From: an uncultured Clostridium sp.
Lineage (GTDB): Bacteria > Bacillota > Clostridia > TANB77 > CAG-508
Length of the DNA stretch: 64,000 nucleotides
Assembly (NCBI GenBank): GCA_947061115.1
Contig: CAMSMU010000001.1
Location: 3,361-67,360, forward strand
Direction: 5' to 3'
Shown in pieces: positions 4,127 through 59,138 of this stretch. Numbering within the stretch: the stretch's first letter is position 1; each line of letters opens with the position of its first letter. The notes beneath the pieces were generated by a model. That model had not been told where the DNA came from. It was given only the letters and a program-made list of their open reading frames with translations, and made no database searches. A program made the position numbers and the translations under genes.

Positions 4127-5075
4127 CTAATCACGAAGCTCCTTTCCTGTTAATTCTAAGAATACATCATTAAGAGTAGGTCTTTCTGAATAGATTTTAT
4201 TATAATGTATATTTTCTTTTTTTAAGTAGTCTATCATATCTACTAAATTATGTTTTCCTTTTTTATATGTTACAAGTAATATATTACTACTGTATGTTAC
4301 ACTATCAACATTTTCTAGTTTTTTTATTTTATCTATTAATACTGATTCTAAATCATTTACTTCAACTGTAACTTTTTCTTCTATTTTTGCAAGTTCTTTT
4401 AGTTCATCTGTTGTACCAGATGCTATTATTTTTCCTTTATCTAAAATAATTACTCTATCACAAAGGATTTCTACTTCCTCCATATAATGAGTAGTATAAA
4501 CAATAGTTGCTCCACTATCTCTTAACTTTTTTATTCCATCTAAAATGTTATTTCTACTTTGTGGATCAACAGCAACTGTTGGTTCATCTAAGAATATAAG
4601 TTTTGGCTTATGCGCTATTCCACACGCTATGTTTAATCTTCTTAAAAGTCCTCCAGATAACTTCTTTGGGTAAAATTTTTTAAAATCTTCTAATCCAACT
4701 AATTTTATCGCATCTTCTATATACTCTTCTCTTATTTTTTTGTCTTTAATATATAATCCGCAAAAATAATCTATGTTTTCATATACTGTAAGTTCTTCAA
4801 ATACTGATACATCTTGAAAAACTACTCCTATTTTTGATTTTATATTATAAGCATTTGGATTCATTTCTTTTCCAAATATTTTAATACTTCCTTTACTGAA
4901 TTTTAGTAATGACAAAATACAATTTATAGTAGTAGATTTACCGCTTCCGATTTGGGCCCAGTAAACCTAATATTTCTCCCTCATGCACTTCAAAAGATAA
5001 ATCATCTATTGCTTTTAGTTCCTTATATTGTTTTAGCAAATTTTTGACTTCAATAATATTATTCATTTTATTATC
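4127..5075 (-). pseudogene. ABC transporter ATP-binding protein, frameshift inside the Walker A motif
   Basis: The upstream frame reads MNNIIEVKNLLKQYKELKAIDDLSFEVHEGEILGLLGPN then hits a stop. The coding strand has GGCCCAAATCGGAAGCGGTAAATCT where GGCCCAAATGGAAGCGGTAAATCT would give GPNGSGKST. The downstream ORF 4127..4915 holds the rest (LSGGLLRRL, D-loop, H-loop). Confidence 0.75.
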
Positions 5076-19540: not shown

Positions 19541-20438
19541 ATTTATTTAATATTTTTTCTCTTAATCCATCTTCCATATTTATTTTTGTTGGTATTATAT
19601 ACTTCGCATCTATTCTATGTAATACTACATTTGTTATTGCCTTCATAGCCCTTGACCCATCAAACCATAATGGATTATCGCTATTTTCTCTTATTCTATT
19701 TAATGAAGTAATATAAGCATTTCTATCATATTTATCACTCATATCTATTGTAAGCATATACTTTTGTTTATCATCTTCATATAATTCATTTTTTATTAAA
19801 TCATATTTAGCATTATTGTACCAATATAAATGATCTCCTCCTGCAAGAATTAACAAATCACATTTAATGTTGAAATCATCTTCTATTAATGAATCTATGT
19901 ATGAATATACTTCATCAAAACTACAAGTTGGTATATCTTCTTTTAGCGTGCTAAATTTATTAGTAATATCTACAACACCAAAATTTAAATATTTTTTATA
20001 TATTATTTCTTTGTTATTTACAATTAATAATTCTGTTGAACCTCCACCGCCAATAAATATGCAAATATTCCCATTATATTCTATATTATTATAACATCCA
20101 AAAGCAGTATATACTGCTTCTTTTTCTTGTGATACAACAGATATTTTTATTTTAAATTTATCATATATGTAACTATTTATTTCTTCTAACTCTTCTTTTG
20201 TTATTTTTCTAAAAATACTGCAACCAAATACATAAACATTATTAGTATAGCTAAAAGCTTTTTCTATTTCACTACATAATTTTTCTATATCTTCACTATT
20301 AATTTTATTATATATTCCATAATTCTTTTTTAATTCTACTGTGCAAATATTTTCATATATGCTTTTTTGTTTTTCATATACGTGTGTTTTTGTATTATTA
20401 CTTCCTATTTCAATAATTGCAAATGTTGTTTCACTCAT
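19539..20438 (-). CDS. Ppx/GppA-family (ASKHA-fold) phosphatase-like protein
   Basis: N-terminal AIIEIGSNNTK and internal IFIGGGGSTELL glycine motifs, typical of the Ppx/GppA actin-like fold. Confidence 0.5.
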   Translation of the reverse strand: MSETTFAIIEIGSNNTKTHVYEKQKSIYENICTVELKKNYGIYNKINSEDIEKLCSEIEKAFSYTNNVYVFGCSIFRKITKEELEEINSYIYDKFKIKISVVSQEKEAVYTAFGCYNNIEYNGNICIFIGGGGSTELLIVNNKEIIYKKYLNFGVVDITNKFSTLKEDIPTCSFDEVYSYIDSLIEDDFNIKCDLLILAGGDHLYWYNNAKYDLIKNELYEDDKQKYMLTIDMSDKYDRNAYITSLNRIRENSDNPLWFDGSRAMKAITNVVLHRIDAKYIIPTKINMEDGLREKILNK

Positions 20439-20553
20439 ATAGTACCTCTTTTAATAAACTTTTATAATTTACATTATTATATATGTTTTATATAAAACTT
20501 TCAATCTTTATTTATATCTTTATATTTTTATTGGTTGCTATTAGAACTCAGGT

Positions 20554-21765
20554 CTACATATATAAAGTGCCTCTCATGCCAATGTTACTACCAGAACTGA
20601 TGGTACTGCCGTAATCACGACTGCCCGCTGGGTAGTAAAGAGCAACAATGTTGTAATAGCCACCACGCTGAACGCAACGAAAGACAGAGTCATAGGTCTC
20701 TGTTGTCCATTCAAAAACATTTCCTCCCATATCATATATGTTTTTTACTGCGTGATATCCTGTATTTTTTAAGCCTCCATTTCCTGAATAATTTCCGCCT
20801 TCACTATTTACTGCATATGTTCCCTCTATAAACTGTAAGGCTGTATCCCATGCATAACTACTACATAATTTTGACTTTCCTGTATACATTCTTTCTGCTA
20901 TAGTTTTCGCTTCATCTCTTGTTATCCAATTATATACTGGTAAATTTTCTTTTATTCTTGCAGTTGCGATTATATTTCCTTCACTACTTTCGTTTCTTGA
21001 ACTATCTGTTCCAACTTCGTATCTACCTAAATAATACCCTCCATATTTTTGTATACTTATTCTTTCATCTTCTGGTAATGCTTCATGATAATAACCTGAT
21101 GTATTATTTACTTTTTGTATCTTATAACTTCCATCTGCATCTTTTTCATATTCTCCATTTGATACTAATACAAATGATTGCCTTCCACTCCAATCATCTC
21201 TTGTAAATGCATATCTATCATATTTTAATGTATTATTTTCTCCATCTAATGAGCATGGAATCCATACAAATTGATTTCCTACTGTATCATTGTTATTTGC
21301 ACTTACATCTTCTATTACTATTCCTTCTTCTACTGTTTGATCAGGGTTTATTACTTTAAATCCTGCTGGAACTACTACTCTATTTCCATTTTTATCTGTT
21401 GTTTCTGTATTTGTTCTTTCTTCTCCTGTTATTTCTTTTAATGGATTTTTATTATTTCCTCCATTTCCATCTAATCCTAAATTCTTTAATGTTTCATCAT
21501 AAGTATTTGCAAAACTCTGCATTTCGCTTGCTTCATTTGCTTCTGCTTCCCTCCATGTATTCGCCGCATTTTTGGCTCTTGTAAATAACCCATTATTGCC
21601 TACTGTTAGGCTTATAGCTATTCCTGCTAATATTAATAACACTATTATTGTTACGACTAATGCTATCAATGTTATACCTGCGGGCGACTGATAGTCGCCC
21701 ATACGAACGTTTTTTATATTCTTTACACCTTTTACCACTTTATTTATCCTCCTTTGTTTTTGCAA
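20554..21765 (-). CDS. prepilin-like (N_methyl-type helix, Ala at +5) protein with C-terminal FGE-sulfatase-like domain
   Basis: GDYQSPAG|ITLIALVVTIIVLLILAGIAI, then a linker, then a domain with YDMGGNVFEWT and RGGYY (FGE/SUMF1-fold motifs). An alternative GTG start at 21738 follows RBS AAAGGAGG. Confidence 0.6.
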   Translation of the reverse strand: MQKQRRINKVVKGVKNIKNVRMGDYQSPAGITLIALVVTIIVLLILAGIAISLTVGNNGLFTRAKNAANTWREAEANEASEMQSFANTYDETLKNLGLDGNGGNNKNPLKEITGEERTNTETTDKNGNRVVVPAGFKVINPDQTVEEGIVIEDVSANNNDTVGNQFVWIPCSLDGENNTLKYDRYAFTRDDWSGRQSFVLVSNGEYEKDADGSYKIQKVNNTSGYYHEALPEDERISIQKYGGYYLGRYEVGTDSSRNESSEGNIIATARIKENLPVYNWITRDEAKTIAERMYTGKSKLCSSYAWDTALQFIEGTYAVNSEGGNYSGNGGLKNTGYHAVKNIYDMGGNVFEWTTETYDSVFRCVQRGGYYNIVALYYPAGSRDYGSTISSGSNIGMRGTLYM

Positions 21766-22039
21766 TTTATTTTAATTGCTTTTTATTATTTATATAATAT
21801 CATTTTTTATTTTGCAATTATTATTAGTTGCTTTATTTTACTTATTTTTATTATTATTTCTATTATTGAATTTATTATTCTTTTGTTTAATATTATCTTT
21901 TTTAGGGAGATTTATAATCGTCCCTACAATTTAATTTATAATAAAAAATTTTTTTATACTTATCTTCTCTTGTTACATATATGCTACTTTCCTCCTTTTT
22001 CAACCAATTTTGACTGTCCCCTTTGGTTGCCCCTGCAAC

Positions 22040-22230
22040 CACAAAAAACTATGCTTTTTAGATTTCTCTAAAAAACATAGTTTTTCTACGTTTACGTAAT
22101 TCTATTTCATTAAACCTTACGATATATATATATATATATATACAGTATCAGGTGTTTTAACGTTTTTCATTTGCTTTTTCCTCGTATTTATTTTTACATA
22201 TTTTATCATATCCAATTTTGTCTAACAATA
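22040..22230 (-). promoter_or_regulatory. repeated leader element, copy 1: promoter, (TA)10, leader ORF 22117..22170 and terminator-like hairpin
   Basis: Minus strand carries TTGTTA-17-TGATAAAAT. GAGGAAAAAGCAA precedes ATG AAA AAC GTT AAA ACA CCT GAT ACT G(TA)10 TCG TAA, giving MKNVKTPDTVYIYIYIS. The hairpin is AAAAACTATGTTTTTTAGA-GAAA-TCTAAAAAGCATAGTTTTT followed by TTTTTTG. Confidence 0.55.
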
Positions 22231-22386
22231 CTAACTTATTATTTTACATCATTAAATATTTAAAACTATTGAAGTTATTATATATAACTTGTTGTGCTGC
22301 CATTACTGTTTCGTTTTTTATTTCTTCTTTGTTATATTGAACATCAAATTGATTATTAGGCTAATTAGTATTTTGATTATTTTTCA

Positions 22387-23248
22387 CTATTTTAATGTTG
22401 CTAATCCTATAAAACGTACTCCTTGATAAGATACATTACCTACATTTGCTTCAGCACATTTGCTAGTAAATCGCCCATATAGTATTCTCTCATCTTGATA
22501 ATAATCACAAATCCCTTTAGTAATTGAATATCGAGAGTCAACTGTAGCTATATTATATGCATAAGCCTCTGATACCAAAAAATCTATTTTATCGATTTCA
22601 TTTGGATAATTCATATATAAGCTATATTTACCTTCTTGTAAATTATAACCTGGAGTCATATATGAATAAAATAGACACTTTTTTCCACCTAATTTATATA
22701 TATAGAATTTTCCATGCCCATTGTTACCGATAACTTCCTCTAGTTTCTAATTGTTCTAGTGTCCTATTATCCTTTTCATTCATTTCATTTTGTATATTTT
22801 CATATTTTTCATTAAGATTAGTATATTTATTCTCTAAATCTGCTAATTTGTTCATTAGTTCTTCGATATCAGCATTTGTATTTGTTTCTGTATTACCTTC
22901 TATCTTTATCTCATTTCCAAACTGTGTTAACATTTCTATTTCATTTTCTTCAGCTTGTTTATATTTTTCTACTGCTTTTTTTGCTCTTGATATTATTCCA
23001 TTATCTCCTAAGGTAAAATTTATTGTTATACCTGCCAATATTAATAAAACTATTATTGTAACAACCAATGTTACTAATGTTATACCTGATGGCGACTGAT
23101 AGTCTCCTCTACATTCGTTCTTTTTATTCATCTTTATTACTATATTAGATAATCTTCCACCTTCTCTACTTTTTAATTTATTATTAAAAAACTTTTTCTT
23201 ATAGTTAGCTTCTTTTGCTACATACATCCTACTTTCCTCCTTTTTCAA
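22387..23248 (-). pseudogene. prepilin-like protein with coiled-coil linker and C-terminal HG-YIY domain; +1 C frameshift joins ORFs 22724..23248 and 22387..22659
   Basis: N-terminus RGDYQSPSG|ITLVTLVVTIIVLLILAGITI. The coding strand reads TTATCGGTAACAATGGGC; without the C it continues GSYGNNGHGKFYIYKLGG into the downstream ORF. The inserted base is at plus 22727..22729 (ccg). Confidence 0.6.
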
Positions 23249-23299
23249 CCAATTTTGACCGTCTCCTTTGGTTGGAATTCTTTGTTTTTGTTTATTTTA

Positions 23300-23490
23300 C
23301 GCAAAAAACTATGCTTTTTAGATTTCTCTAAAAAACATAGTTCTTTCTACGTTTACGTAATTCTATTTCATTAAACCTTACGATATATATATATATATAT
23401 ATACAGTATCAGGTGTTTTAACGTTTTTCATTTGCTTTTTCCTCGTATTTCTTTCTATATATTTTATCATTTTATTTTTTTTCGTTCAAC
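23300..23490 (-). promoter_or_regulatory. repeated leader element, copy 2: promoter, (TA)10, leader ORF and terminator-like hairpin
   Basis: TTGAAC-17-TGATAAAAT promoter. Leader ORF and (TA)10 match copy 1. Hairpin at 23305..23342. It is followed by hairpin CAACCAA..TTGGTTG and RBS AAAAAGGAGG, then ATG TAT GTA of the 22387..23248 gene. Confidence 0.55.
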
Positions 23491-23509
23491 CATTAGTTTT
23501 AAATTACTA

Positions 23510-24296
23510 TTATCCTAATGCAACATCTAATATCATCATTATTATAAAACCAACTATTAACCCTAATGTTGCTAAATTTTTATTTTCTTTTATTGATTCT
23601 GGTAATAGTTCTCTTGCTACAACTGAAATCATTGCACCTGCTGCAAATGAAAGTAAAAGTGGCAATATACTCCTTATACTCAAAACCAATACTACTCCAA
23701 TAACTGCTGATATAGGCTCTACTAATGCTGATGCCTGCCCAATCATAAAACTTTTAAATCTAGAAAATCCTTCATTTCTTAATGGTAAGGAAACTGCTGC
23801 ACCTTCTGGAAAATTTTGAATACCTATACCTAATGCAAGCATAATTGCTCCTATTAGAGTCATTCCTGGTACTCCACTTGCTATACCTCCAAAGGCAACA
23901 CCTACTGCCATCCCTTCTGGTATATTATGAATTGTAATTGCAGATATTAAAAGTATACTTCTTTTTAATGAATCTGCTTTTTTTAAATTATCACTATTCT
24001 TTAATACCTTATCTAAAAATCTATCAGATAATAGCACGAAAAGTCCTCCAAATACAAAACCTATAGTTGGAAATATCCAAGCTATGTATCCTAATTCATT
24101 GGATAAATCTATTGCTGGTGCAAGTAAAGACCAAAATGAAGCTGCTAACATTACTCCAGCACTAAAACCTAAAATTGTATCTAATACTTTTTTGTTCATT
24201 TCTTTGAAAAAGCATACAACTAAAGCTCCTAATGCTGTTACTCCTCATGTAAATGTTGTAGCAATTAATGCTTGAACTACTGAGTTTAAATTTTCA
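23510..24296 (-). pseudogene. ZIP-family (ZupT-like) metal transporter with an in-frame TGA
   Basis: The N-terminus begins at a TTG start with RBS AGGTGA and reads (M)NWFENLNSVVQALIATTFT. It stops at TGA (plus 24241..24250, tcctcatgtaa) where Trp of TWGVTALGALVV is expected. The rest is ORF 23510..24199 and carries the HNIPEGMAVG and NFPEGAAV ZIP motifs. Confidence 0.6.
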
Positions 24297-24399: not shown

Positions 24400-24428
24400 A
24401 TATAAAAAGGCGATTTATAATCGCCCCT
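24400..24428 (-). terminator. rho-independent terminator (GGCGATTTATAATCGCC hairpin)
   Basis: Perfect 7-bp stem at 24409..24425, followed on the minus strand by CTTTTTATAT. It lies downstream of the 24453..25739 gene. Confidence 0.55.
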
Positions 24429-24452
24429 ACAATTTATGAATATTTAAGTTGT

Positions 24453-43245: not shown

Positions 43246-43458
43246 CTACTTTATATATAGTGCAGGGCGAAATCCAAGATCTGTAGAAGTATTAGTTAAC
43301 GGACCAGATCCACGGTAACATGTAGGACGGTTTGAGCTATTTCCTACTAAAATTAATAGCACAATTATTGTTACTACTAATGCTACAAGTGTTATTCCGT
43401 TATGAGTACTAAACTCGTCCTTACAAGCGTTTTTCATATTTCTTACATCTTTTACCAT
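43246..43458 (-). CDS. short prepilin-like protein (70 aa)
   Basis: MVKDVRNMKNACKDEFSTHNG|ITLVALVVTIIVLLILVG, then a short tail whose codon usage is unusually GC-rich (CGT, CCG, CGC). Confidence 0.45.
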   Translation of the reverse strand: MVKDVRNMKNACKDEFSTHNGITLVALVVTIIVLLILVGNSSNRPTCYRGSGPLTNTSTDLGFRPALYIK

Positions 43459-43599
43459 CTATTTCATTCTCCTTTGTTTTTGCAATTATTATTAGTTGCT
43501 ATTTTAAATTTGTTTTTATTATTATTTCTATTATTAAGTTTATTATTCTTTTGTTTAATATTATCTTTTTTCGGGCGATTTATAATCTCCCCTAAGAGC

Positions 43600-43745
43600 T
43601 TTTATGATCTGATTTTTACGCAAAAAACTATGTCTTTTACATTCTTCTAATAAGACATAGTTTGCTATGTTTATGTAATTTTATTTCATTGAACCTTACG
43701 ATATATATACATCCTCAATGCTTTTCTTCATTTTTATATTTCCTT
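43600..43745 (-). promoter_or_regulatory. repeated leader element, copy 3 (degenerate): (TA)4, leader ORF 43696..43731, hairpin with compensatory stem changes
   Basis: RBS AAAAGGAAAT..ATG gives MKKSIEDVYIS. The hairpin AACTATGTCTT-ATTAGAAGAATGTA-AAGACATAGTT followed by TTTTTGCG sits at the same place as in copies 1 and 2 but has a different stem sequence. Confidence 0.45.
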
Positions 43746-43755
43746 TTATTTTTAT

Positions 43756-43833
43756 TTATATATTAGCTAATATTAATAACACTATTATTATCACAACCAG
43801 TGTTACTAAAGTTATTCCCTTTTCTCTTTTCAT
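43756..43833 (-). pseudogene. mini-ORF remnant holding only the prepilin-like leader and helix (25 aa)
   Basis: RBS GGAGAG then ATG: MKREKG|ITLVTLVVIIIVLLILANI, then a stop. Confidence 0.4.
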
Positions 43834-44013: not shown

Positions 44014-45276
44014 CTAGTTTTTTACAAATATATAATTCCGCCTAAAACCAATTCGTTTAAAACTTTCTTTTGAAGTGGTAATATTGGATGCTAAACGAAA
44101 GCATGGCCAATTAATATTCAGATAATTTCCTCCTCTAGATATAAAAGGGTTATCTTTAGTATAGCCTTCTGTACTCCATTCTGATACATTTCCTGCCATA
44201 TCATATATATTACATCTTACATCTTTATTTGTTCCATCACTAGATTGTCCTGTTTTTGCAAGTGAATATTGTAATTTATTTTGTTTTGAATACTCTTTAT
44301 CTCCACTAAATTCTTGAATAAATACTATTGCTGTATCCCATGAATAGCTATTTATTAAATCGCTTGTATATTTTTCATTTTGATTACTATATAAATTTCT
44401 CATTAATGTAGCTGCATTTGTCTGATATATGCAATTATATGCTATTTTATTCTCTTTAAAAACTGGTGTAGTACTCTGGCTTGATCCATCAACTCTATCA
44501 TTTGTAGCTGTTGGATCTCCTGCTTCATATCTGGCAATATAATATCCTCCATTATTTTTTACACTTTCTTTAAATGCATTTATATCTTTTGCTATTGTAT
44601 TTCCAAATTTGCTTATTACATGTTCTTCTGCTGTTTCTTCTTTATGATTCCCACTAAATTCACTTATTGATCCATTGCTACCAAAATCATATCTTCCAAG
44701 ATATATTGTATGCTCTATTCCATTACTATCTTTTATTGTATTCGCTTTTTCATCATCTACATGAGAAACTGGTATCCATACATATTGATTTCCTTTACTT
44801 GTTGCATTATTTGCTATTACATCTTCTATTATTATTCCTTTTGTTACATCTTCTTCAGGATTTAGAACCTTGAATCCTGCTGGTATTACTATTTTATTTC
44901 TATTTTTATCTGTTGTTTGTATATTTTTTGTTTCATTTACTGTTATTTCCTTTAACGGATTAATATTATCATCTTTAGGATTTTCTTCATTGTTTCCTGA
45001 ATTTTCACTATGAGTTTCATTTCTTAATTTTTGCATTTGACTCGCTAATTTTGAAAGTTCTCCTTCCTCTTCTTCTGTAGCTTTTTTCCAATCATTCACT
45101 GCTTCTTTTGTTTCACTTAGTACCCCTCCATCTTTCATTGATAAATTAATTGCTACTCCTGCTAATATTAAAAGTACTATTATTGTTACTACCAATATCA
45201 TTAAAGTTATACCTTGTTGATTAGTGATGTTTATTTCTACTTTTTTTATTCTTCTTTTCAACTTGTTTTTTATCAT
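44014..45276 (-). CDS. prepilin-like protein with C-terminal FGE-sulfatase-like domain, paralog of 20554..21765
   Basis: NQQG|ITLMILVVTIIVLLILAGVAI, and YDMAGNVSEWSTE..RGGNY in the C-terminal domain; 420 aa. Confidence 0.6.
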   Translation of the reverse strand: MIKNKLKRRIKKVEINITNQQGITLMILVVTIIVLLILAGVAINLSMKDGGVLSETKEAVNDWKKATEEEEGELSKLASQMQKLRNETHSENSGNNEENPKDDNINPLKEITVNETKNIQTTDKNRNKIVIPAGFKVLNPEEDVTKGIIIEDVIANNATSKGNQYVWIPVSHVDDEKANTIKDSNGIEHTIYLGRYDFGSNGSISEFSGNHKEETAEEHVISKFGNTIAKDINAFKESVKNNGGYYIARYEAGDPTATNDRVDGSSQSTTPVFKENKIAYNCIYQTNAATLMRNLYSNQNEKYTSDLINSYSWDTAIVFIQEFSGDKEYSKQNKLQYSLAKTGQSSDGTNKDVRCNIYDMAGNVSEWSTEGYTKDNPFISRGGNYLNINWPCFRLASNITTSKESFKRIGFRRNYIFVKN

Positions 45277-45339: not shown

Positions 45340-45480
45340 TAAACAAAAACTATATATTTTAGATTCTCCTAAAATACATAGCTTTTTTCCTATGTTTACG
45401 TAACTTTATTTCATTAAACCTTACGATATATATATATATATATACAGTATCAAGTGTTTTAGCGTTTTTTATTTATTTTT
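45340..45480 (-). promoter_or_regulatory. repeated leader element, copy 4: (TA)8, promoter TGATAAAAT; leader ATG mutated to ATA; hairpin rearranged
   Basis: The minus strand reads ..GGTATGATAAAATAAATAAAAATAACTAAAAGGAAAAAATAAATAAAAAACGCTAAAACACTTGATACTG(TA)8TCGTAAGG.., with inverted repeats CATAG/CTATG and ATTTTAG/CTAAAAT. Confidence 0.45.
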
Positions 45481-45607
45481 TCCTTTTAGTTATTTTTATT
45501 TATTTTATCATACCTTTTATGTTTTTTCTATTATTTTTTTTAATTATGGCGACTGATAGTCGCCCCTACAATTATTAATTTTTACATTTAATTTGTTTTA
45601 TTATGAG

Positions 45608-49086: not shown

Positions 49087-50682
49087 TTACATATTTGGTG
49101 TTAATACTATTCCTCCACTTGTGCTTACATTTACTGATATACCATTTTGAGTTGGTATTGTTGTATTTTGATCTGCTGTTATATTATCTACATTATTAGT
49201 AACTTCATTACTTAATACTTCATTTTCTGTTGCATTAGTTATAGTACCATTAACTACTGTTTGATTAGTTACATCATTAGTAATTTCATTTGTAGTAATA
49301 TTTGATGTATTATTTGTATTTAACATATTAGATGTATCATTTTCATCTTGTTCATCTAATTTATATACATTGCACACATAATCTAGGACTTCTGAGTTAA
49401 TATCATCTGGTATTATAGTATCTTCATTTGATAGTATAAATTCTATAAATATATCGTCTTCTGGTAATAATACAAAATAGCAACGTTCTATTGATGTACT
49501 ATATACTAAATCTAAATATGCATAGTAAGATCCATCTTTTAATGTAAAATTACTTGTTCCTAATTCTACAGCTGTATTTGCATCTGCTTGTGATGAAAAT
49601 TGATTATATAAAAATGTAAATAAGCTTGATCTTCCATTTGCCATTGTAATGTCAAATCCTGAATTAGCTAAGTTTTCTAGAACCTGTGCATATATTAATT
49701 TATATTTTTCATTATAAAGTGCTTTGTCTGTTTCATTTAATGTCCACATTGATGAATTATAATCAAATCCATAATCTTTGTAGAAGTTATAATATTCATA
49801 AGAAGCTTGAATATCTGCTACTTGGTTTCCTGTGTTGTTATTTGTTGCTGGTTTTTTAGCAAACATAGGCATAAGTAGTATTGCTCCTACTATTAATGCT
49901 ATAACAATTACTATTATTATTGCTAATATTACAATTGTTTTATTTCCTTTTTTCTTAGTTTTGTATGGGCTTTGGTAATTTTGTTCTTGATTTGGTTGAT
50001 TTACATTATTATTAAATCCATTTTGCATCATTGGATCTTGATATCCCATATTTCCTTGATCTTGATAGTTCATATTGTTATCAAATCCATTTTGTGCCAT
50101 TGGATCTTGATATCCCATATTTCCTTGATCTTGATAGTTCATGTTGTTATCAAATCCATTTTGTGTCATTGGATCTTGATATCCCATATTTCCTTGATCT
50201 TGATAATTCATATTGTTATCAACTACATTTTGTGCCATTGGATCTTGATATCCCATGTTTCCTTGATCTTGGTAGTTCATATTATTATCAACTACATTTT
50301 GTGCCATTGGATCTTGATATTCTACATTTCCTTGTTCTGAATAATTCATATTATTATCAATAACATTTTGTTCTGATACATCAGGTACTTCATTAACTTC
50401 CATATTATTTTGCATTTCGTTACCACCGCTTAATATTTGGTTTGTTACCACATTAGTATCAGCAGTTTCTTCTACATTACTTAAATCAAAAAGATTAAAC
50501 GCTTCTTCTGGTTCTTGTACTCCTTGATTTTGATCTGTTACTAAATTATTATTTTCCATATTTAAATCTTCATTCTGAAAATAAGGATTATAATATGGAT
50601 TTTCTTGATTCTCATTACCAGGATTTACATTATTTGCATTTTCATTATTATTTAAGTTCCCTAAATTTTTATTTTCATCCAT
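49087..50682 (-). CDS. single-pass membrane protein with N-terminal Q/N/M-rich tandem repeats
   Basis: Five ~24-aa repeats (NMNYQDQGNMGYQDPMAQNVVDN) encoded by ~72-bp tandem DNA repeats at ~50000..50360. They are followed by TM IVILAIIIVIVIALIVGAILLMPMF and an extracytoplasmic C-terminal domain. Confidence 0.55.
   Translation of the reverse strand: MDENKNLGNLNNNENANNVNPGNENQENPYYNPYFQNEDLNMENNNLVTDQNQGVQEPEEAFNLFDLSNVEETADTNVVTNQILSGGNEMQNNMEVNEVPDVSEQNVIDNNMNYSEQGNVEYQDPMAQNVVDNNMNYQDQGNMGYQDPMAQNVVDNNMNYQDQGNMGYQDPMTQNGFDNNMNYQDQGNMGYQDPMAQNGFDNNMNYQDQGNMGYQDPMMQNGFNNNVNQPNQEQNYQSPYKTKKKGNKTIVILAIIIVIVIALIVGAILLMPMFAKKPATNNNTGNQVADIQASYEYYNFYKDYGFDYNSSMWTLNETDKALYNEKYKLIYAQVLENLANSGFDITMANGRSSLFTFLYNQFSSQADANTAVELGTSNFTLKDGSYYAYLDLVYSTSIERCYFVLLPEDDIFIEFILSNEDTIIPDDINSEVLDYVCNVYKLDEQDENDTSNMLNTNNTSNITTNEITNDVTNQTVVNGTITNATENEVLSNEVTNNVDNITADQNTTIPTQNGISVNVSTSGGIVLTPNM
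49995..50360 (-). repeat. tandem ~72-bp coding repeats, 5 units
   Basis: Repeated ggatcttgatatcccatatttccttgatcttgatagttcat... units; these produce the spurious antisense ORFs. Confidence 0.7.
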
Positions 50683-53408: not shown

Positions 53409-55271
53409 TTAATAATTTTCAAAATAAGCATTTACCTTATATAAATTATATTTTTCTCTTGCAAGTGCTGTTATATATGCTTCTCGTACTTTAGCATTTG
53501 CAGTTTTACCTGCTTTTGTAGTTTCTATGTCATTTATGTTAGAAAATTGCGTTCCTTTGATAAGATTGTCTGAAGTGTATAATACGTCTTCTTTTCCTAT
53601 AATACATTCATATGCACCAGATCCAGAATGTGGATAATAATATAACATGTTTGTTTCTATACTATAATCTGGTTTTGTTATGTCATATGTTACTATTTGT
53701 TGCTCATAATCTATATTGCTATATCCCATTAAATTGTCTAAATTTTCATCATTTAATTTTTCGCATTTTGGATTATGATAATTTCTAGTTACATCTATAT
53801 CTCTGTTTCCTGTTTCTCTCTCTGCTAATATTATTGAGTCTCTTGAAATAAATTCTTTATTTTTACTATTTACTACTATTGAATAATTACTATAGTATTT
53901 ATAATTTCCTATAGGAAGTCCCTGCATAAATGTTACTATTGTTATATTGTTTGTTATTTTATACCAATCGTCTTCTGTCATTACTGGCAAAGCGAATTCG
54001 TATCCAGCATTTTGATGTATATTAAAGTTTGATATAATACTCATTAAATTTGATTCAATTGAGCTAATTATTACATCCATTCTGTGCTCGTTAAATACTG
54101 AATCTTCTGCTTCTGGATCATTTGATTCACTTATTTTAAATATATCATTTACATTATAAGCTGTACGAGCATGAATTGGTATAGTTTCTCCATTTGCAGT
54201 TTTTGTATAATTAAGTTGATTATTATAACTTTCTGTTTGTATTGTTAAGTTTTGTCCATTAAATATATTTATTACATATTCTGAAAATTCTTTTGATTCT
54301 TTATAATATTTAAATGCACTTCTATCTAAATAGTTATCTACAGTTATTTCATTATATGAGTTAAAGCCTAAAAATTGTGCAAAACTTTGTGCTTCATTTT
54401 CATTTAAATATACTCGCAAATTATTATTCATTCTAAATAATCGTATTCCATTATAAGAACTTAAACTTTCTAAATACGTATTTGAATTTGTTGTGTCTAA
54501 GTAATATTTTTGATTATTATAATATACATAATTGTAATATGCTACATCAGTTGATGCAAATGTTGTTCCCCTTGAAAGTTTTACTGTATCTATTGCTTCT
54601 ATGTATTCTCCCAATTTTTCTGGTTTTATCGTTACTCCATGTGATTGCAAAGTTCCTTGTGATTCATTAATATTTGTTACTGTGGCAGGATTTATAAAAT
54701 AACCTGATCTATTTACTATATTACCATTATTATCTTTTCCCATTATTGTTATATAGTTATCTAAAGTATAGTTTACTATTATATCAAAAGATGCCCCTCC
54801 TTTATATTCACATGAATAATATATATATGGCTTTATTGCATTACTTGTTTCTAGTTGATTTGAATTTTGTGTAGAATATACTTGTGTTCCTTCCTCTATT
54901 GATACTATATTTTGGTAATCTCCATATAAATAGTAACCATCATACATAGTAAATAACAGTGCTGGTATATATCCATTTAGATCTTGAATATTATAACCTG
55001 AAGATCCGAATGCAGTTGCTAAACTATTATAAAATGAATTTACTGCTGCAGATATATCTCTTATTTTTGAATCATTTATTGTTGAATAGGCATTACTTAA
55101 TGTATTCATTTGAAAAGCCTCAACAGCATCATTTGTAGAACTAAGTAAAATAGAATCATACTCAGATTGCTTTTTTTCTACTTGTATATTATTATTAACA
55201 TATTGTGATACTACTATAGAAATAGGTAATACTATAATTATAAATACTACTGCTAAATGCTGTATTTTCAT
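53409..55271 (-). CDS. large extracytoplasmic protein with N-terminal TM anchor; first gene-product downstream in the Tad-like locus
   Basis: 620 aa, N-terminal LAVVFIIIVLPISIVV, Asn/Tyr/Ser-rich ectodomain. Confidence 0.4.
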   Translation of the reverse strand: MKIQHLAVVFIIIVLPISIVVSQYVNNNIQVEKKQSEYDSILLSSTNDAVEAFQMNTLSNAYSTINDSKIRDISAAVNSFYNSLATAFGSSGYNIQDLNGYIPALLFTMYDGYYLYGDYQNIVSIEEGTQVYSTQNSNQLETSNAIKPYIYYSCEYKGGASFDIIVNYTLDNYITIMGKDNNGNIVNRSGYFINPATVTNINESQGTLQSHGVTIKPEKLGEYIEAIDTVKLSRGTTFASTDVAYYNYVYYNNQKYYLDTTNSNTYLESLSSYNGIRLFRMNNNLRVYLNENEAQSFAQFLGFNSYNEITVDNYLDRSAFKYYKESKEFSEYVINIFNGQNLTIQTESYNNQLNYTKTANGETIPIHARTAYNVNDIFKISESNDPEAEDSVFNEHRMDVIISSIESNLMSIISNFNIHQNAGYEFALPVMTEDDWYKITNNITIVTFMQGLPIGNYKYYSNYSIVVNSKNKEFISRDSIILAERETGNRDIDVTRNYHNPKCEKLNDENLDNLMGYSNIDYEQQIVTYDITKPDYSIETNMLYYYPHSGSGAYECIIGKEDVLYTSDNLIKGTQFSNINDIETTKAGKTANAKVREAYITALAREKYNLYKVNAYFENY

Positions 55272-55515
55272 TTGCTTTCCTTTCTTATTGTATTTTTTAT
55301 TATTCTAAATTATAAATATATATTTTTAAGGGCAAATTAAGGTGGGGACCAACAAGTTAAAAAGTATTAATTAAATTGTAGCCCTAGCGTTAAGCAATTT
55401 AATTTAGACTTTTTTATGTAGTTGGGGTGAGCCCTGAAAATATATATTTATAATTTAGAATACAAATAAAATAAACTTTAAAAATGGGAATAGATCTTTA
55501 TCTACTCCCTTTAAT

Positions 55516-56040
55516 TTATTTTCCGTTTACATTTACAAATCCGCTAGATCGTGCTGTTACAGTAGATGAATTGTTTCCTGTTACACGATAGATAAAATCT
55601 TTTAATATTGTAGATATTGTTCTATTTTGGTTTTTAACACTTACAGATACAAGATCTCCACGTTTTAAATACATTTCTCCATTATCTGAATTTACCTCAT
55701 CTAATATTTGTGATGTAAATTTACTATAATAATAGTTTTCTCCTACTTTTGTATATTCTGCTTCTGTTACTTTCTTTCCTGGATTATCATCTAGTACTTG
55801 CACTTCCATATCTACATCAAAGCTATTTCCTGTAGAACTTATTGTTTGTACAAAACTATCATAATTATCTTGTGTAATTTTTCCTGTAGATCTAATTCCA
55901 TCAACAAAGTCTGTTGTTGCAGCTTCTACTGCTTGTTTTGAAATACTGTCTACATTATCTGCTGTTGACATTAGTGGAAAAATGAACATTAGTATAGCTG
56001 CTAAAAATATTGCTACTACTGTTACTACTGTATCACTCAT
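55516..56040 (-). CDS. N-terminally anchored small protein (candidate minor pilin-like or accessory protein)
   Basis: MSDTVVTVVAIFLAAILMFIFPL at the extreme N-terminus, then a Ser/Thr-rich domain. Confidence 0.35.
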   Translation of the reverse strand: MSDTVVTVVAIFLAAILMFIFPLMSTADNVDSISKQAVEAATTDFVDGIRSTGKITQDNYDSFVQTISSTGNSFDVDMEVQVLDDNPGKKVTEAEYTKVGENYYYSKFTSQILDEVNSDNGEMYLKRGDLVSVSVKNQNRTISTILKDFIYRVTGNNSSTVTARSSGFVNVNGK

Positions 56041-56051
56041 ATCTGCCTCCT

Positions 56052-56882
56052 TTAATTAACTATATAAATATATTGTATTACTCTTTTTGTAGTTCCTGAT
56101 TTCTTATTTACTATTTCTCCATTTTCTAGTATATCTACTGATGATACTATATTTGATGCAATATCTGTATCTTCGTCAGTATAATCTTTTGTTACTACAT
56201 TATTGTAATTGTATTCCCCATATCTTTCTACGAATTGATATTTTTTTCCAACTAAACCTTTAAATCCATATTCATTAAATCTAATTGTATAGTATGGTCC
56301 ATATGTAGTGTCCTTTTGATATGTCCTTGAATCATAAGGACTTTTTACCCTTGATGTATAATATCTATTTGTTTGTATTCCATTTATAAAGGATTTTATA
56401 AAATCATAGTCTGTATCTTGTGTTGCATTCCATGGTTCATTTCTTGCTTGTTCATCTTGTTTATCAAAACCAAATACTGCTCGTCCTCCACCTTCGCTTT
56501 TAATTAATAAAGATGATTTTCTTAAATAGTTATCTGGTGTTTCAGTATAATATATTGTCATTGGCTCTATATTATTAAATTGGCCATTTGTATTATTATA
56601 CCCTGTACCTCTATAAAACACTACTGTGTAATCTTCTTTATAATATCTATATAAAGTAGGTATTACTGTTTCAACTCCTACTATTCTACTTGATGATTTC
56701 CAAGCACTTGATTCTGTTTCATCTAATGTTAATCTGTCATAGTATTCTCTTTCATCTGAATCAGCCAATATTTTAGAAGATGTTTGCATTACTTTTGAAA
56801 ATGAAAACATCGCTATAGATAATGCTGATACAAATACTAATATTGCAAAAGCCATTTTTATGGCATGTGACGCATTTTCCAT
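56052..56882 (-). CDS. MENAS-family protein 4 (MENASHAIKMAFAILVFVSALSIAMF...)
   Basis: Shares its first ~20 nt (ATGGAAAATGCGTCACATGC) and the N-terminal helix layout with the three upstream paralogs; 276 aa. Confidence 0.5.
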   Translation of the reverse strand: MENASHAIKMAFAILVFVSALSIAMFSFSKVMQTSSKILADSDEREYYDRLTLDETESSAWKSSSRIVGVETVIPTLYRYYKEDYTVVFYRGTGYNNTNGQFNNIEPMTIYYTETPDNYLRKSSLLIKSEGGGRAVFGFDKQDEQARNEPWNATQDTDYDFIKSFINGIQTNRYYTSRVKSPYDSRTYQKDTTYGPYYTIRFNEYGFKGLVGKKYQFVERYGEYNYNNVVTKDYTDEDTDIASNIVSSVDILENGEIVNKKSGTTKRVIQYIYIVN

Positions 56883-56910
56883 TTATTTATCACAACCTTT
56901 TATAATGGTA

Positions 56911-57384
56911 TTAAGAACCACTACCTGATGTAGATCCTGGTTTATTTTGGTTTACTTGTATTACTATTGTTTTTATATATCCATTTGCCCAATAAGTAGA
57001 GTTGTCATTATCGACATCACTATAAGCATCTCCCTCTGCTAATTTTACTGTATAAGTTCTTCCTGTCTTTATACTAGAAGAAGTTACTGCATTATTACTT
57101 TCATCAATTGTATAAATTTTATTTCCTATGACTTCATCATTAGCACCTGCTGCATTATTATTAGCTGTTACTTTACTTAATAATGCTTTTACATTACTTC
57201 CTGAAACTGAACCTCCAAAATATGCTTCAAATGGTGAGTTATGCATTGTTATTTCTTGTTCACTTAAACCTGCTCCTGATGCTATACCTGATACATTATT
57301 ATAAATTATAACCCCTAATCCTACTATTAAAATTGAAATTAAGATTGACCCTGCAATTATTAATGCTTTTGATGCATTCTCCAT
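56911..57384 (-). CDS. MENAS-family protein 3 (MENASKALIIAGSILISILIVGLGVIIY...)
   Basis: Perfect RBS AAAGGAGGAAATTTTT ATG; 157 aa; N-terminal hydrophobic helix then a Ser/Gly/Asn-rich domain. Confidence 0.55.
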   Translation of the reverse strand: MENASKALIIAGSILISILIVGLGVIIYNNVSGIASGAGLSEQEITMHNSPFEAYFGGSVSGSNVKALLSKVTANNNAAGANDEVIGNKIYTIDESNNAVTSSSIKTGRTYTVKLAEGDAYSDVDNDNSTYWANGYIKTIVIQVNQNKPGSTSGSGS

Positions 57385-57448
57385 AAAAATTTCCTCCTTT
57401 GATTATATGTTTTATTATTTCAAGCCATAATTGACTAAATTAATAACT

Positions 57449-57928
57449 TTATATTTGTTCAAAATACAGATAACTAACAAAATTTGTTTTTGTATGATAC
57501 TCTATATTTGTACATTTAAATTTTATATTGGAATATAAACTTATAAACTTTTCTATTCCATTTTTTGATATTTGCTCTATTTTAAATATTTTATCACTTT
57601 CAGTGAATTTTATTTCTATAATTATAGAGTTTGTCCCATTATTTAAATAATATCCATTTTCATCTTTAATTATATCATTTTTGTAATTTTTATCTAATGT
57701 TTTGTTTATTATTGTAGATAAACTATTTCCTGATATTTCTTTATTATAAAGATCTACGTATTCTTTATTATTTTCATTAATTTGTCTATTATTATTTAAA
57801 TAATTAATATATAAATATGATATACTACTTATTGCTAAAATAGTCAAAATTATAAATATAATGTATATATAATGTTTTTTCATATTTTTCCTCTTTTGCA
57901 TTATAACATTAGTAAAAAAATTATGCAA
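57449..57928 (-). CDS. N-terminally anchored hypothetical protein in the Tad-like locus
   Basis: Basic N-terminus then YIYIIFIILTILAISSISYLYI, a TM helix. Confidence 0.4.
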   Translation of the reverse strand: MHNFFTNVIMQKRKNMKKHYIYIIFIILTILAISSISYLYINYLNNNRQINENNKEYVDLYNKEISGNSLSTIINKTLDKNYKNDIIKDENGYYLNNGTNSIIIEIKFTESDKIFKIEQISKNGIEKFISLYSNIKFKCTNIEYHTKTNFVSYLYFEQI

Positions 57929-57972
57929 TGTTTTTTCAAAAAAATTATATAATTTGTATAGCTATATTAACA

Positions 57973-58533
57973 TTATTTTATATCCCATATAATATTTTTT
58001 GCTTCTAACAATGCATTTGAAAATTCTTGTGCGTTTGCTCCTTTTATTTCATGAAAATTTATTTTATTTACTAACTGAGTATTAAAATTATATAGTATGT
58101 CTTCATCTGTAGTAATTGCTGTAAGCTTTAAATTCTCTCCATCTTTAATTATTTTTACATTTTTTAAATTACAATAATAATAAGTATTATTTTTATTTTC
58201 TTCTAAATATTCATTTATATTAGTATTTAATACACTATTTCCATCTATACAAACATCAATATAAAATTCATCATTTTGGCTTACATTATATTCTTCATTT
58301 CTTTGTTTTGCAAAATTTATAATAGTAGCTATTTCTTGACTACTAATATTAGCTCTGCCTTCATAATTAGTAAATTTTACATTAAATTGCACTATTTGTG
58401 CTTCTTCCATTTTTATATTTAAGTTTCTCGAGAAAGTTCCGAATTGTATAATTATATAACTTGCTAATGAAATTATAAGCACACCAATTAAAATTTCTCC
58501 AGCAATTATTAGTGCTTTTGATGCATTTTCCAT
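57973..58533 (-). CDS. MENAS-family protein 2 (MENASKALIIAGEILIGVLIISLASYII...)
   Basis: RBS AGGAGGAGG; 186 aa. Confidence 0.55.
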   Translation of the reverse strand: MENASKALIIAGEILIGVLIISLASYIIIQFGTFSRNLNIKMEEAQIVQFNVKFTNYEGRANISSQEIATIINFAKQRNEEYNVSQNDEFYIDVCIDGNSVLNTNINEYLEENKNNTYYYCNLKNVKIIKDGENLKLTAITTDEDILYNFNTQLVNKINFHEIKGANAQEFSNALLEAKNIIWDIK

Positions 58534-58554
58534 TAGCTTTCCTCCTCCTATTTT

Positions 58555-59091
58555 TTATGTTGATTCCTTTACTTTTACTTGCTTAAATACCATTCTTATT
58601 ACTCTTCCTAAGCCACCTGTTCCTAATACCTGATCATTATCGTAAAATATATCTGTGCATTCAAAATAAAATTGTTTAAATTGATTTTTTTGATTAGCAT
58701 TTAATTTATCATAAATATTAGTTACATATTTTCTCATATCATAATATTTAGTTCCTGATATTAATTCATTATTTGTAGCACCTGGAAGATCAACATTTTT
58801 ACTCATTATTGCTCTTATCTCTATTGGTCTGTATCCCTCTTCTTCTGTATATCTTGTACTAACATCTATTGCTAAATTAGCAAGAGATATCATCTGATAT
58901 CCCCTTACCGTTTTCTTATTGTAGGCTTCAAATTGTTTATTAAATTCTACTATTTGCTCTCTTTCTTCAGCTTCGGCTTCTACTTGCTTATATGATCTTA
59001 TATTAGAATAACCCCATGTAATAAGTCCTATAATCATCATAGCAATCATCATTCCGCCTGCAATTATTAATGCTTTTGATGCATTTTCCAT
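58555..59091 (-). CDS. MENAS-family protein 1 (start at the second Met: MENASKALIIAGGMMIAMMIIGLITWGY...)
   Basis: RBS GGAGGG lies 5 nt before ATGGAAAATGCATCAAAAGCATTAATAATTGCAGG. The ORF tracker's extra MEGK has no RBS. Confidence 0.55.
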   Translation of the reverse strand: MENASKALIIAGGMMIAMMIIGLITWGYSNIRSYKQVEAEAEEREQIVEFNKQFEAYNKKTVRGYQMISLANLAIDVSTRYTEEEGYRPIEIRAIMSKNVDLPGATNNELISGTKYYDMRKYVTNIYDKLNANQKNQFKQFYFECTDIFYDNDQVLGTGGLGRVIRMVFKQVKVKEST

Positions 59092-59138
59092 TTTTCCCTC
59101 CATTAGTTCATTCTATACATTGAACTAATATCTATTTT

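Follow-up and report, generated by a model that had tools for sequence, protein, structure and literature searches.

Four copies of a short leader module built around a (TA)n repeat are found in a 64,000-nucleotide (nt) stretch of DNA from an uncultured Clostridium sp. (GenBank assembly GCA_947061115.1, contig CAMSMU010000001.1, positions 3,361 to 67,360; this whole stretch is referred to as the window). The module is probably a phase-variable leader-peptide attenuator: each copy would constitute the mRNA leader of a pilin-like gene, in which transcription attenuation is set by the length of the (TA)n tract within a leader-peptide open reading frame (ORF) and is toggled by repeat slippage. We put the probability of this reading at about 60%. 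The window has a G+C content of 26% and is a piece of a spore-forming clostridial chromosome, as read from its gene content, which includes recG, asd, the genes for Spo0A, SpoIVB, a sortase and the transporter ZupT, and genes encoding cohesin and dockerin proteins.

Anatomy and distribution of the leader module

The core sequence of the element, CGTAAGGTTYAATGAAATA, occurs exactly four times in the window, always on the minus strand (22103-22121, 23364-23382, 43682-43700 and 45407-45425, designated copies 1 to 4), and four matches were obtained in none of 100 shuffled sequences. The module comprises, in order, an extended -10 promoter, a Shine-Dalgarno (SD) sequence (GAGGA or AAGGA in the window) with an ATG, a leader ORF containing G(TA)nTC, a box of 36 nt, an A/U-rich hairpin and a T-run; another 60-300 nt separate the T-run from the ribosome-binding site (RBS) of a gene, the product of which has a short basic segment and the helix GITLIALVVTIIVLLILAG at its N-terminus. 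Over 140 nt, copies 1 and 2 share 94% identity.

In copy 1 the promoter (22200-22228) consists of the -35 element TTGTTA (22223-22228), a 17-nt spacer and the extended -10 element TGATAAAAT (22200-22208), the -10 hexamer being TAAAAT. The leader ORF (22117-22170, SD GAGGA at 22179-22183) encodes MKNVKTPDTVYIYIYIS followed by TAA and includes the G(TA)10TC tract (22121-22143). The box CGTAAGGTTTAATGAAATAGAATTACGTAAACGTAG (22086-22121) contains the stops TCG-TAA (+2, counted into the box) and GTT-TAA (+9), and a stem CGUAA/UUACG. It is followed by a terminator-type hairpin of 19 bp with a GAAA loop (22044-22085), whose T-run pairs with the 5' A-run; the long frame would end at a TAA directly 3' of the loop. 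Two overlapping hairpins, GGTTGCAGGGGCAACC and CAACCAA..TTGGTTG (22001-22040), lie directly 5' of the RBS, and their counterparts at the metagenomic loci L013 and L015 enclose the palindrome GGCGACT..AGTCGCC.

Copy 2 carries the promoter TTGAAC-17-TAAAAT with the same TG extension (23461-23489), the same leader ORF MKNVKTPDTVYIYIYIS ending in TAA (23378-23431, SD at 23440-23444, G(TA)10TC at 23382-23404), the conserved box (23347-23382) and a terminator-type hairpin with a T-run (23303-23343), and here the long frame would end at a TAG in the 5' arm. No promoter is recognisable in copy 3, where the leader ORF MKKSIEDVYIS, followed by TAA (43696-43731), includes G(TA)4TC (43700-43710) and precedes the box (43665-43700) and a hairpin with a T-run (43625-43663; box and hairpin together 43625-43700). 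The promoter of copy 4, TAGAAA-17-TAAAAT with a TG extension (45502-45530), is weaker. Its leader is in the long frame (45359-45472, IKNAKTLDTVYIYIYIVRFNEIKLRKHRKKAMYFRRI followed by a stop), with G(TA)9TC at 45425-45445, the box at 45390-45425 and a terminator-type hairpin with a T-run at 45345-45386; because ATA replaces ATG, copy 4 as written has no leader ORF. The T-run after this hairpin (45345-45350) has five T in the window and in SRR26686540, and six in SRR35841360 (L022).

Most of this anatomy had been described in an initial annotation made from the letters of the window. Its TTGnnn-17 promoters, GAGGA-N8-ATG opening of MKNVKTPDTVYIYIYIS, near identity of copies 1 and 2 and CAACCAA..TTGGTTG hairpin adjoining the RBS in both are all borne out, as is the leader ORF of copy 3. 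Its hairpin of about 19 bp with a GAAA loop and a T-run likewise holds (19-20 bp, -32 to -33 kcal/mol, z about -6). Other statements stood in part. The leader ORF holds for copies 1-3 and fails for copy 4 with its ATA start; the TA counts had been given as 10, 10, 8 and 4, correct for copies 1 and 2, with copies 3 and 4 in fact carrying 4 and 9 units. All four copies had been placed 5' of prepilin-like genes: the four copies exist, on the minus strand, but copy 3 precedes a 70-amino-acid (aa) remnant and the N_methyl score of the proteins is below the cutoff.

The comparison was extended to 11 distinct DNA copies, four from the window and seven from metagenomes. The SD and ATG are kept in ten of them, copy 4 being the exception, and G(TA)nTC lies inside the leader ORF in every copy. 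Copies 2 and 4, L013 and L021 retain the ATGATAAAAT box, and extended -10 variants occur at L015, L033, L044 and L046. A scan of 185,579 species-representative genomes with the exact core returned six chance matches only, and the element was not found in viral contigs (two scans) or in annotated plasmids and phages. A metagenome scan yielded two true copies, L013 and L015, and a protein look-up added L021 as a third from the same metagenome. Using the n = 9-frame translation as a query led to two called ORFs with loci, L033 and L034; synteny with the window is seen for L033, and L043 represents a partial copy. The position in the window that corresponds by synteny to the L033 leader, upstream of 53409-55271, was inspected as a further candidate and holds an unrelated gene and no leader.

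A profile of the long-frame peptide retrieved 58 cluster representatives among 1.84 billion proteins and at least 931 matches in a 90%-identity collection, with the well conserved consensus MTKIAESLEAVYIYIYIVRFNKINLCKHRRKTMLFRRI; two proteins of 610 and 655 aa listed in the leader clusters proved to be unrelated sequences. Loci L044-L048 (25-29% G+C) repeat the whole arrangement of promoter, SD, ATG, (TA)9, box, hairpin and U-run. At these loci and at L033 the module lies directly 5' of genes with a GITL(I/V)ALVVTIIVLLILA N-terminus, the genes differing while the N-terminal family is the same, and throughout it is co-oriented with, and immediately 5' of, genes of this one family. A covariance model built from eight copies detected no further copies in the other sequences collected. 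We considered whether the leader accompanies the N-terminal protein family as a whole and rejected this, as the locus of a distant member, P0095, has a plain promoter and RBS and no leader; the module thus belongs to one clade of these genes.

Tract length, reading frames and the proposed switch

In all 11 DNA copies two of the three frames leaving the TA tract stop early, and the third is open into the hairpin. The first short frame ends at TCG-TAA (TCG-TAG in distant copies), with the stop at +2 in the box, and the second at GTT-TAA or ATT-TAA, with the stop at +9 (+12 in copy 3). Since the hairpin base is located at +36, the short-frame stops lie about 24-31 nt upstream of it. The long frame, used when n is a multiple of three, remains open for 18-24 codons and in nine copies ends within the hairpin at +52 to +70; it is closed by a TAG in the 5' arm in copy 2 and L013, and in the other copies by a TAA within the loop or immediately 3' of it. 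The same three-frame pattern is seen at L044 and L046, where the long-frame stop falls in the apical loop, and 150 of the 178 retrieved long-frame ORFs end within the hairpin (...FRRI followed by the stop) or three codons later. The proposal in the initial annotation that n = 9 would take the leader frame into the hairpin was confirmed by this frame reading. In 251 distinct peptides the codon after the Val behind the Tyr-Ile (YI) run specifies nine different amino acids, none of which needs a pyrimidine in the first position, so that the first short frame retains its TA(A/G) stop. Judged from these peptide sequences, this stop is apparently conserved family-wide; the purine is also compatible with the small stem CGUAR/UUAYG.

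The TA tracts themselves are exceptional. Those of copies 1 to 4 have 10, 10, 4 and 9 units, and the only tracts of at least six units in the 64 kb are three belonging to the element, each of at least nine units; the longest TA tract in 200 first-order Markov simulations had 8 units. The TA tracts are not a by-product of AT-richness. Among copies found regardless of frame, the four of the window are joined by an interrupted tract equivalent to 10 units (L013) and by tracts of 7 (L015) and 3 units (L021). Of these seven copies, five fall into the first short frame and one into the second, and the remaining one has the long frame without an ATG.

Natural length variants are observed at several levels. 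At the copy 2 locus the window has (TA)10 and the sample SRR21411942 (L011) has (TA)9, with an identical ZupT neighbour and upstream sequence. Long-frame ORFs are equivalent to (TA)3, 6, 9, 12 or 15, the mode being 9: YI runs of 1, 2, 3 and 4 units are present in 9, 6, 36 and 7 of the 58 cluster representatives, respectively. One leader with five YI units has flanks 100% identical to those of a three-unit leader, and two leader-peptide pairs with 93-97% flank identity have 3 versus 4 YI units; within the 90%-identity clusters, all inspected members have three. Single-unit TA changes, expected to be the commonest and to shift the frame, are invisible in such protein data, and only long-frame ORFs are long enough to be reported by gene callers. 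Such changes are also mostly lost from short-read (Logan) contigs, in which breaks fall at the 31-mers common to copies 1, 2 and 4, and contigs ending at the tract therefore say nothing on heterogeneity. The exact 30-aa ORF product at copy 2 matched no record, thus giving no count of n = 10 alleles by that route. Tract length changes on short timescales, yet it is centred on about 9-10 units.

These features suggest the following mechanism. Transcription would begin at the extended -10 promoter, and a ribosome loaded at the leader SD and ATG would read (TA)n as Tyr-Ile codons, the number of TA units determining in which of the three frames it leaves the tract. With n = 1 mod 3 the ribosome would stop at TCG-TAA, 2 nt into the box, and with n = 2 mod 3 at GTT-TAA, about 9 nt into the box; with either stop about 24-31 nt short of the hairpin base, the terminator would form and most transcripts would end (OFF, or low expression). 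With n = 0 mod 3 the ribosome would cross the 5' arm of the hairpin, translating 18-24 codons, and stop in or just after the loop, physically blocking terminator folding and allowing RNA polymerase to enter the gene (ON). The box with its stem CGUAA/UUACG might, speculatively, act as a pause site at which the ribosome gains on the polymerase. Slipped-strand mispairing that adds or removes one TA unit would produce a heritable and reversible switch, independent for each copy. By this logic copies 1 and 2 (n = 10) and copy 3 (n = 4) would be OFF in the window, and copy 4 would be in the ON frame with its start codon lost. The same geometry has been experimentally established for the pil1 and pil3 loci of Streptococcus gallolyticus, which is why the leader-switch model is taken as the best explanation.

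A related explanation dispenses with switching. In a fixed translation-coupled attenuator of the kind found at pyrBI or rph-pyrE, the long ORF with (TA)9 (YIYIYI) would be the sole functional state, other values of n would represent decaying loss-of-function mutants, and read-through would be set by the distance between ribosome and polymerase, for example through UAU/AUA decoding or general translation capacity. The clear (TA)9 mode of the long-frame ORFs, the YI count uniform in 90%-identity clusters and the leader peptide consensus, well conserved over 931 matches, all agree with such a device. So does the occurrence of short-frame copies 2 and 3 before broken genes and of copy 4 without an ATG, which suggests decay of the family here. 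However, the short-frame leaders of L013 and L015 precede intact genes (374 and 409 aa), and both out-of-frame stops, which a fixed attenuator does not need, are kept in 11 of 11 DNA copies, even if stem pairing could explain the purine. In addition, the orthologous copy 2 locus differs by exactly one TA unit between samples, the box is free of codon periodicity, and the downstream genes are unlinked to Tyr or Ile metabolism. We regard a fixed attenuator as unlikely.

A hairpin with a stem of 16-24 bp, followed by a U-run, is present in all copies, with 19-20 bp and a GAAA loop in copies 1 and 2. Folding yields -32 and -33 kcal/mol for copies 1 and 2 (z -6.3 and -6.7) and z-scores of -2.9 and -4.4 for copies 3 and 4, while the hairpins of L044-L048, the upper half of which differs in sequence, still fold with z -5.8 to -6.3. 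Pairing across copies amounts to 96%, compared with 33-61% in slid controls. Covariation was tried as proof of the hairpin and was rejected, being not significant; the structure rests on folding energy and pairing conservation.

Between the repeat and the hairpin, 27 of the 38 aligned columns of the box are invariant across organisms with diverged flanks. The variable columns in nine copies are distributed 4/3/4 over the codon positions, i.e. without codon periodicity, so that the constraint acts at the nucleotide level. Peptide-level selection on the long frame, considered when three early substitutions looked synonymous, was rejected on the basis of this split. A box stem of 5-6 bp, CGUAA/UUACG, is kept through G-C to G-U changes, and the ACRUAG segment of the box could pair with CUAUGU at the terminator base (5' arm). 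The box may be a pause or coupling signal, or a factor-binding site. No Rfam 15 family matched the whole window at gathering thresholds, and at E-values up to 10 the region 21600-23600 gave just chance-level matches to microRNA and small RNA families.

Such a box could also belong to a factor-responsive RNA leader, where a protein or small ligand binding the 36 nt would choose between an antiterminator and the terminator, the ORF and TA tract being incidental. Its conservation as nucleotides with the 4/3/4 split, its 27 of 38 invariant columns despite diverged flanks and its maintained stem speak for this explanation, and inspection of the sequences allows a 6-8 bp pairing with the 5' arm of the terminator to be drawn for each copy. 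Against this, the putative antiterminator has an invariant partner and is far weaker than the terminator of 19-24 bp, and Rfam offers no match even at E = 10. The SD and ATG are conserved, AT-rich genomes supply at least 251 distinct sequences in which the long frame runs open into the hairpin, and exceptional TA tracts located exactly inside the ORF would be left unexplained. A factor-responsive leader thus appears less probable than a fixed attenuator, and quite unlikely.

The module might finally be viewed as a stand-alone small gene for a peptide of about 37 aa or a small RNA, travelling with the pilin-like genes. It has its own promoter, SD and terminator-like hairpin, it is called as an ORF in hundreds of assemblies, and about 300 nt separate copy 1 from its gene. 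But its stop codon falls within the hairpin, not ahead of it, just 11-17 aa would be encoded by six of the seven copies found regardless of frame, and there is no codon periodicity. Moreover, the module is co-oriented with and directly 5' of one gene family, with no convincing intervening promoter after copies 2 and 4. A stand-alone gene is therefore a very improbable explanation.

Several observations weigh against the phase-variable attenuator. A length difference at one and the same locus was seen just once, between two assemblies. (TA)9 is by far the most common length (36 of 58 representatives) and uniform in the 90%-identity clusters, although free slippage might be expected to vary more, and this pattern would also suit an attenuator that is fixed and does not switch. 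Copy 4 has the long-frame length (n = 9) but no ATG; about 300 nt, including possible promoters, lie between the copy 1 hairpin and its gene; and the genes after copies 2 and 3 are broken, so these copies may be decaying. The consensus terminator scan did not call the hairpin in the window copies, because the stem has only three G-C pairs and the A-run at its base pairs with the T-run. Covariation of the hairpin is not significant, either with eight copies (113 of 500 shuffles reach the observed score) or with 11, where double-sided changes affect two pairs and the score is reached in 44 of 500 shuffles. The box is far more conserved than the model requires, and another constraint acts on it. 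Ribosome-polymerase coupling is reported to be loose in Bacillus subtilis.

The phase-variable attenuator proposed in the initial annotation is thus supported in part, by the conserved geometry, the occurrence of all three frames in nature, the n = 10 versus 9 difference at one locus, the near-identical leader peptides with different YI numbers and the streptococcal precedent, and is weakened with respect to covariation, the TA counts, copy 4 and the strong (TA)9 mode. In particular, the covariation ascribed to the copy 3 stem was overstated, as this stem is mostly the copy 1 sequence with one or two compensated positions, and the suggested analysis across homologous copies gave the 44 of 500 shuffles mentioned above.

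Downstream genes and other features of the window

All genes following the four copies are on the minus strand. Copy 1 is followed by a 403-aa ORF (20554-21765, likely start GTG at 21738) in which the pilin-like N-terminal helix is GITLIALVVTIIVLLILAG and the C-terminus is weakly FGE-sulfatase-like; the intervening DNA contains a dead stub of an N-terminus (ATG-TAA), a palindrome and about 200 nt of AT-rich insert. The copy 2 gene encodes 167 aa with a pilin-like N-terminus (22724-23227), and the family C-terminus is found in a 90-aa ORF in another frame (22387-22659); the same split is present in every sample carrying this gene (15 contigs from other samples). Copy 3 precedes a gene remnant of 70 aa (43246-43458), in which an internal deletion has fused the N-terminal helix to the family C-terminal tail. 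The copy 4 gene (44014-45276) encodes 420 aa with a pilin-like N-terminus and a weak FGE-sulfatase-like C-terminus. The pilin-like family is decaying or reshuffled locally, as seen from the split gene, the 70-aa remnant, a truncated N-terminus of 25 aa (43756-43833) and the ATG-TAA stub (21973-21997).

The shared N-terminus consists of a basic stretch, a Gly and ITLIALVVTIIVLLILAG...NGLF.RA..AANTWR, and occurs in 1227 database proteins, many of about 77 aa. It constitutes a large unnamed family with no Pfam assignment, many members having 75-90 aa (e.g. MFKKERGITLIALVVTIIVLLILAGVAISLTIGQNGIF.RAQ.AANTWRNAETN...). The C-termini vary, being weakly FGE-sulfatase-like in the window and consisting of other domains elsewhere. 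With the Pfam model N_methyl (PF07963, cutoff 21.2 bits) the window N-terminus scores 12.9 bits, and the relatives P0044, P0051 and P0095 score 20.6, 20.8 and 19.4; the full-length window proteins have no N_methyl match. The Gly at -1 and the helix ITLIALVVTIIVLLILAG are present, with Ala or Val instead of Glu at position +5. The search of the window yielded no prepilin peptidase, and no relative with a solved structure was found. 'Pilin-like' is a fair description, and membership of the prepilin family is not established.

The copy 1 locus is also structurally variable. In six independent runs position 22265 is joined to 19766 with a 7-nt overlap, and one other run matches the window. The resulting 2.5-kb deletion (19767-22264) takes out copy 1 together with its 403-aa gene, and also the first two thirds (5') of the ppx/gppA gene; thus copy 1 and its gene are strain-variable.

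A palindromic repeat of 22-25 nt, (T)GTAGGGGCGAYTATMARTCGCC, is present six times on the minus strand of the window (21683-21704, 21906-21927, 23091-23112, 24409-24430, 43574-43595 and 45548-45569), with none expected by chance, and also at L013, L015, L021 and L043. It is found in three contexts: in frame in the 5' coding region of family genes, where it encodes C-R-G-D-Y-Q-S-P before the hydrophobic helix; as non-coding sequence in leaders, where it folds into a long hairpin behind the terminator (L013 and L015); and behind the stop codons of recG and a cadherin-like gene. The segment from terminator to palindrome is different in each copy, which suggests a recombination breakpoint or an element resembling repetitive extragenic palindromic (REP) sequences.

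At L044 (about 4170-4260) and L046 (about 320-420) the ATG-initiated N-terminus MKNKKI..KVKKQVK is 1 nt out of frame with the GITLVALVV helix. The offset adjoins runs of A7 and A4, and gene callers therefore start at an internal GTG. It could represent a second, homopolymer-based switch or a shared pseudogenising mutation.

Several other features of the window are distinct from the leader module. Directly upstream of a 620-aa ORF (53409-55271, minus strand), a segment of 100 nt is flanked by an inverted repeat of 39 nt with 87% complementarity (55293-55331 and 55432-55470), and an inner inverted repeat of 20 nt lies within the same arrangement (55293-55470), which looks like an invertible promoter switch (inverton). 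A 531-aa ORF (49087-50682, minus strand), for which no Pfam match was obtained, contains six tandem 69-nt repeats (49917-50440; 63-100% identical to the reference copy) that encode 23-aa units. The region 55516-63957 comprises co-oriented genes with almost no Pfam matches, a weak T2SSE-type ATPase (61236-63134) being included, and the four small proteins encoded there (157-186 aa) include three with the common N-terminus MENASKALIIAG and a hydrophobic helix. This region may encode an uncharacterised pilus-like or secretion-type assembly system.

Related systems and biological meaning

The closest described counterpart is found at the pil1 and pil3 loci of S. gallolyticus, in which a (GCAGA)n repeat is located in a leader-peptide ORF and the OFF stop lies 39-49 nt before a terminator (PMC3894217). 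Out-of-frame changes in repeat number lead to longer peptides whose stop is within or after the hairpin (Danne et al. 2014, PMC3894217), and read-through was shown experimentally to depend on translation, on the ATG and on the hairpin (PMC3894217). The module shares with these loci a promoter, a short leader ORF with an RBS and ATG that wholly contains the repeat, and a terminator-type hairpin, here a predicted one, between the leader and a gene for a surface appendage. In both cases the OFF stop precedes the hairpin by tens of nt (39-49 there, about 24-31 here) and the ON stop is within or after it, the host belongs to the Bacillota, and more than one such locus occurs per genome.

The differences are considerable. 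The repeat here is a TA dinucleotide of about 3-15 units, in place of a GCAGA pentanucleotide of 13-22 units, and just one of the three frames is long, as opposed to pil1, where either out-of-frame state leads to a longer peptide. The sequences are unrelated, the host here is a spore-forming clostridium of low G+C content, and the downstream products are N-terminally anchored pilin-like proteins rather than sortase-assembled pilus operons. The near-invariant 36-nt box between repeat and hairpin is present only here, and the function of the clostridial module is putative. The streptococcal precedent shows that the mechanism can work in Bacillota.

Termination control by translation is not restricted to these organisms. 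In Escherichia coli pyrBI and rph-pyrE, a closely following ribosome reportedly suppresses intrinsic termination, according to Turnbough and colleagues and to Jensen in 1993, and the rph-1 frameshift, a fixed laboratory mutation, is said to move the stop upstream and thereby reduce pyrE read-through. The likeness to the present module consists in a leader or upstream ORF translated up to or through the terminator, with the same logic of stop position; the E. coli systems differ in sensing UTP-dependent polymerase pausing and in serving biosynthetic genes with no repeat-driven switch. In Haemophilus influenzae, van Ham et al. in 1993 reportedly attributed fimbria phase variation to slipped-strand mispairing in a (TA)n tract of about 9-11 units at hifA/hifB. 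There too a (TA)n tract controls a pilus or fimbria gene, as proposed here, but it is placed between the -35 and -10 elements and alters their spacing, whereas in the present module it lies about 57-60 nt downstream of the -10 element, in the leader ORF. The repeat of H. influenzae hmw1A, as is predicted for the one described here, is transcribed in a structured 5' untranslated region, which controls an adhesin gene; its heptamers form one arm of an RNase III hairpin, RNA processing is graded by repeat number, and no leader ORF or terminator is involved (PMC12721329). Classical trp, his or ilv attenuation, with regulatory codons for the amino acid that the operon makes and with mutually exclusive antiterminator and terminator hairpins, differs from the present case, in which the downstream genes encode surface proteins and only a weak alternative pairing of 6-8 bp can be drawn.

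Three features that characterise pil1-type leaders are present in the module, namely the SD and ATG (10 of 11 copies), a repeat wholly within the ORF and a stop that shifts with repeat number. By analogy it probably belongs to the same functional class, that of attenuators with a simple sequence repeat in the leader peptide, with no homology to the pil1 family being implied. Neither Rfam nor the searchable literature contains the module. The mechanism is known from one described precedent, from which the module differs in repeat unit and bacterial class; it is present in hundreds of assemblies, with multiple copies per genome. In a broader and more tentative interpretation, which is possible but which we hold with less confidence than the switch itself, the module would represent a large undescribed family of dinucleotide-repeat attenuators in low-GC Clostridia (at least 931 instances), independent of pil1, conferring stochastic ON/OFF control on individual genes and using the box as a dedicated pause or coupling device.

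If correct, these proposals would have several consequences. The overriding of a terminator by leader-peptide slippage, a mechanism known from one streptococcal species, would be widespread and of general use, having arisen anew with another repeat in anaerobic spore-formers of gut-type metagenomes. Hundreds of 'hypothetical proteins' of 36-41 aa in metagenome annotations would be regulatory leaders, and the module could join RNA and leader-peptide family libraries. The box would make ribosome-mediated antitermination work despite otherwise loose transcription-translation coupling, and its conservation would offer a handle on ribosome-polymerase coupling in Bacillota. For the bacteria themselves, independent switches on paralogous pilin-like genes would generate combinatorial surface variation, with a bearing on adhesion, on phage and immune evasion, and on population heterogeneity.

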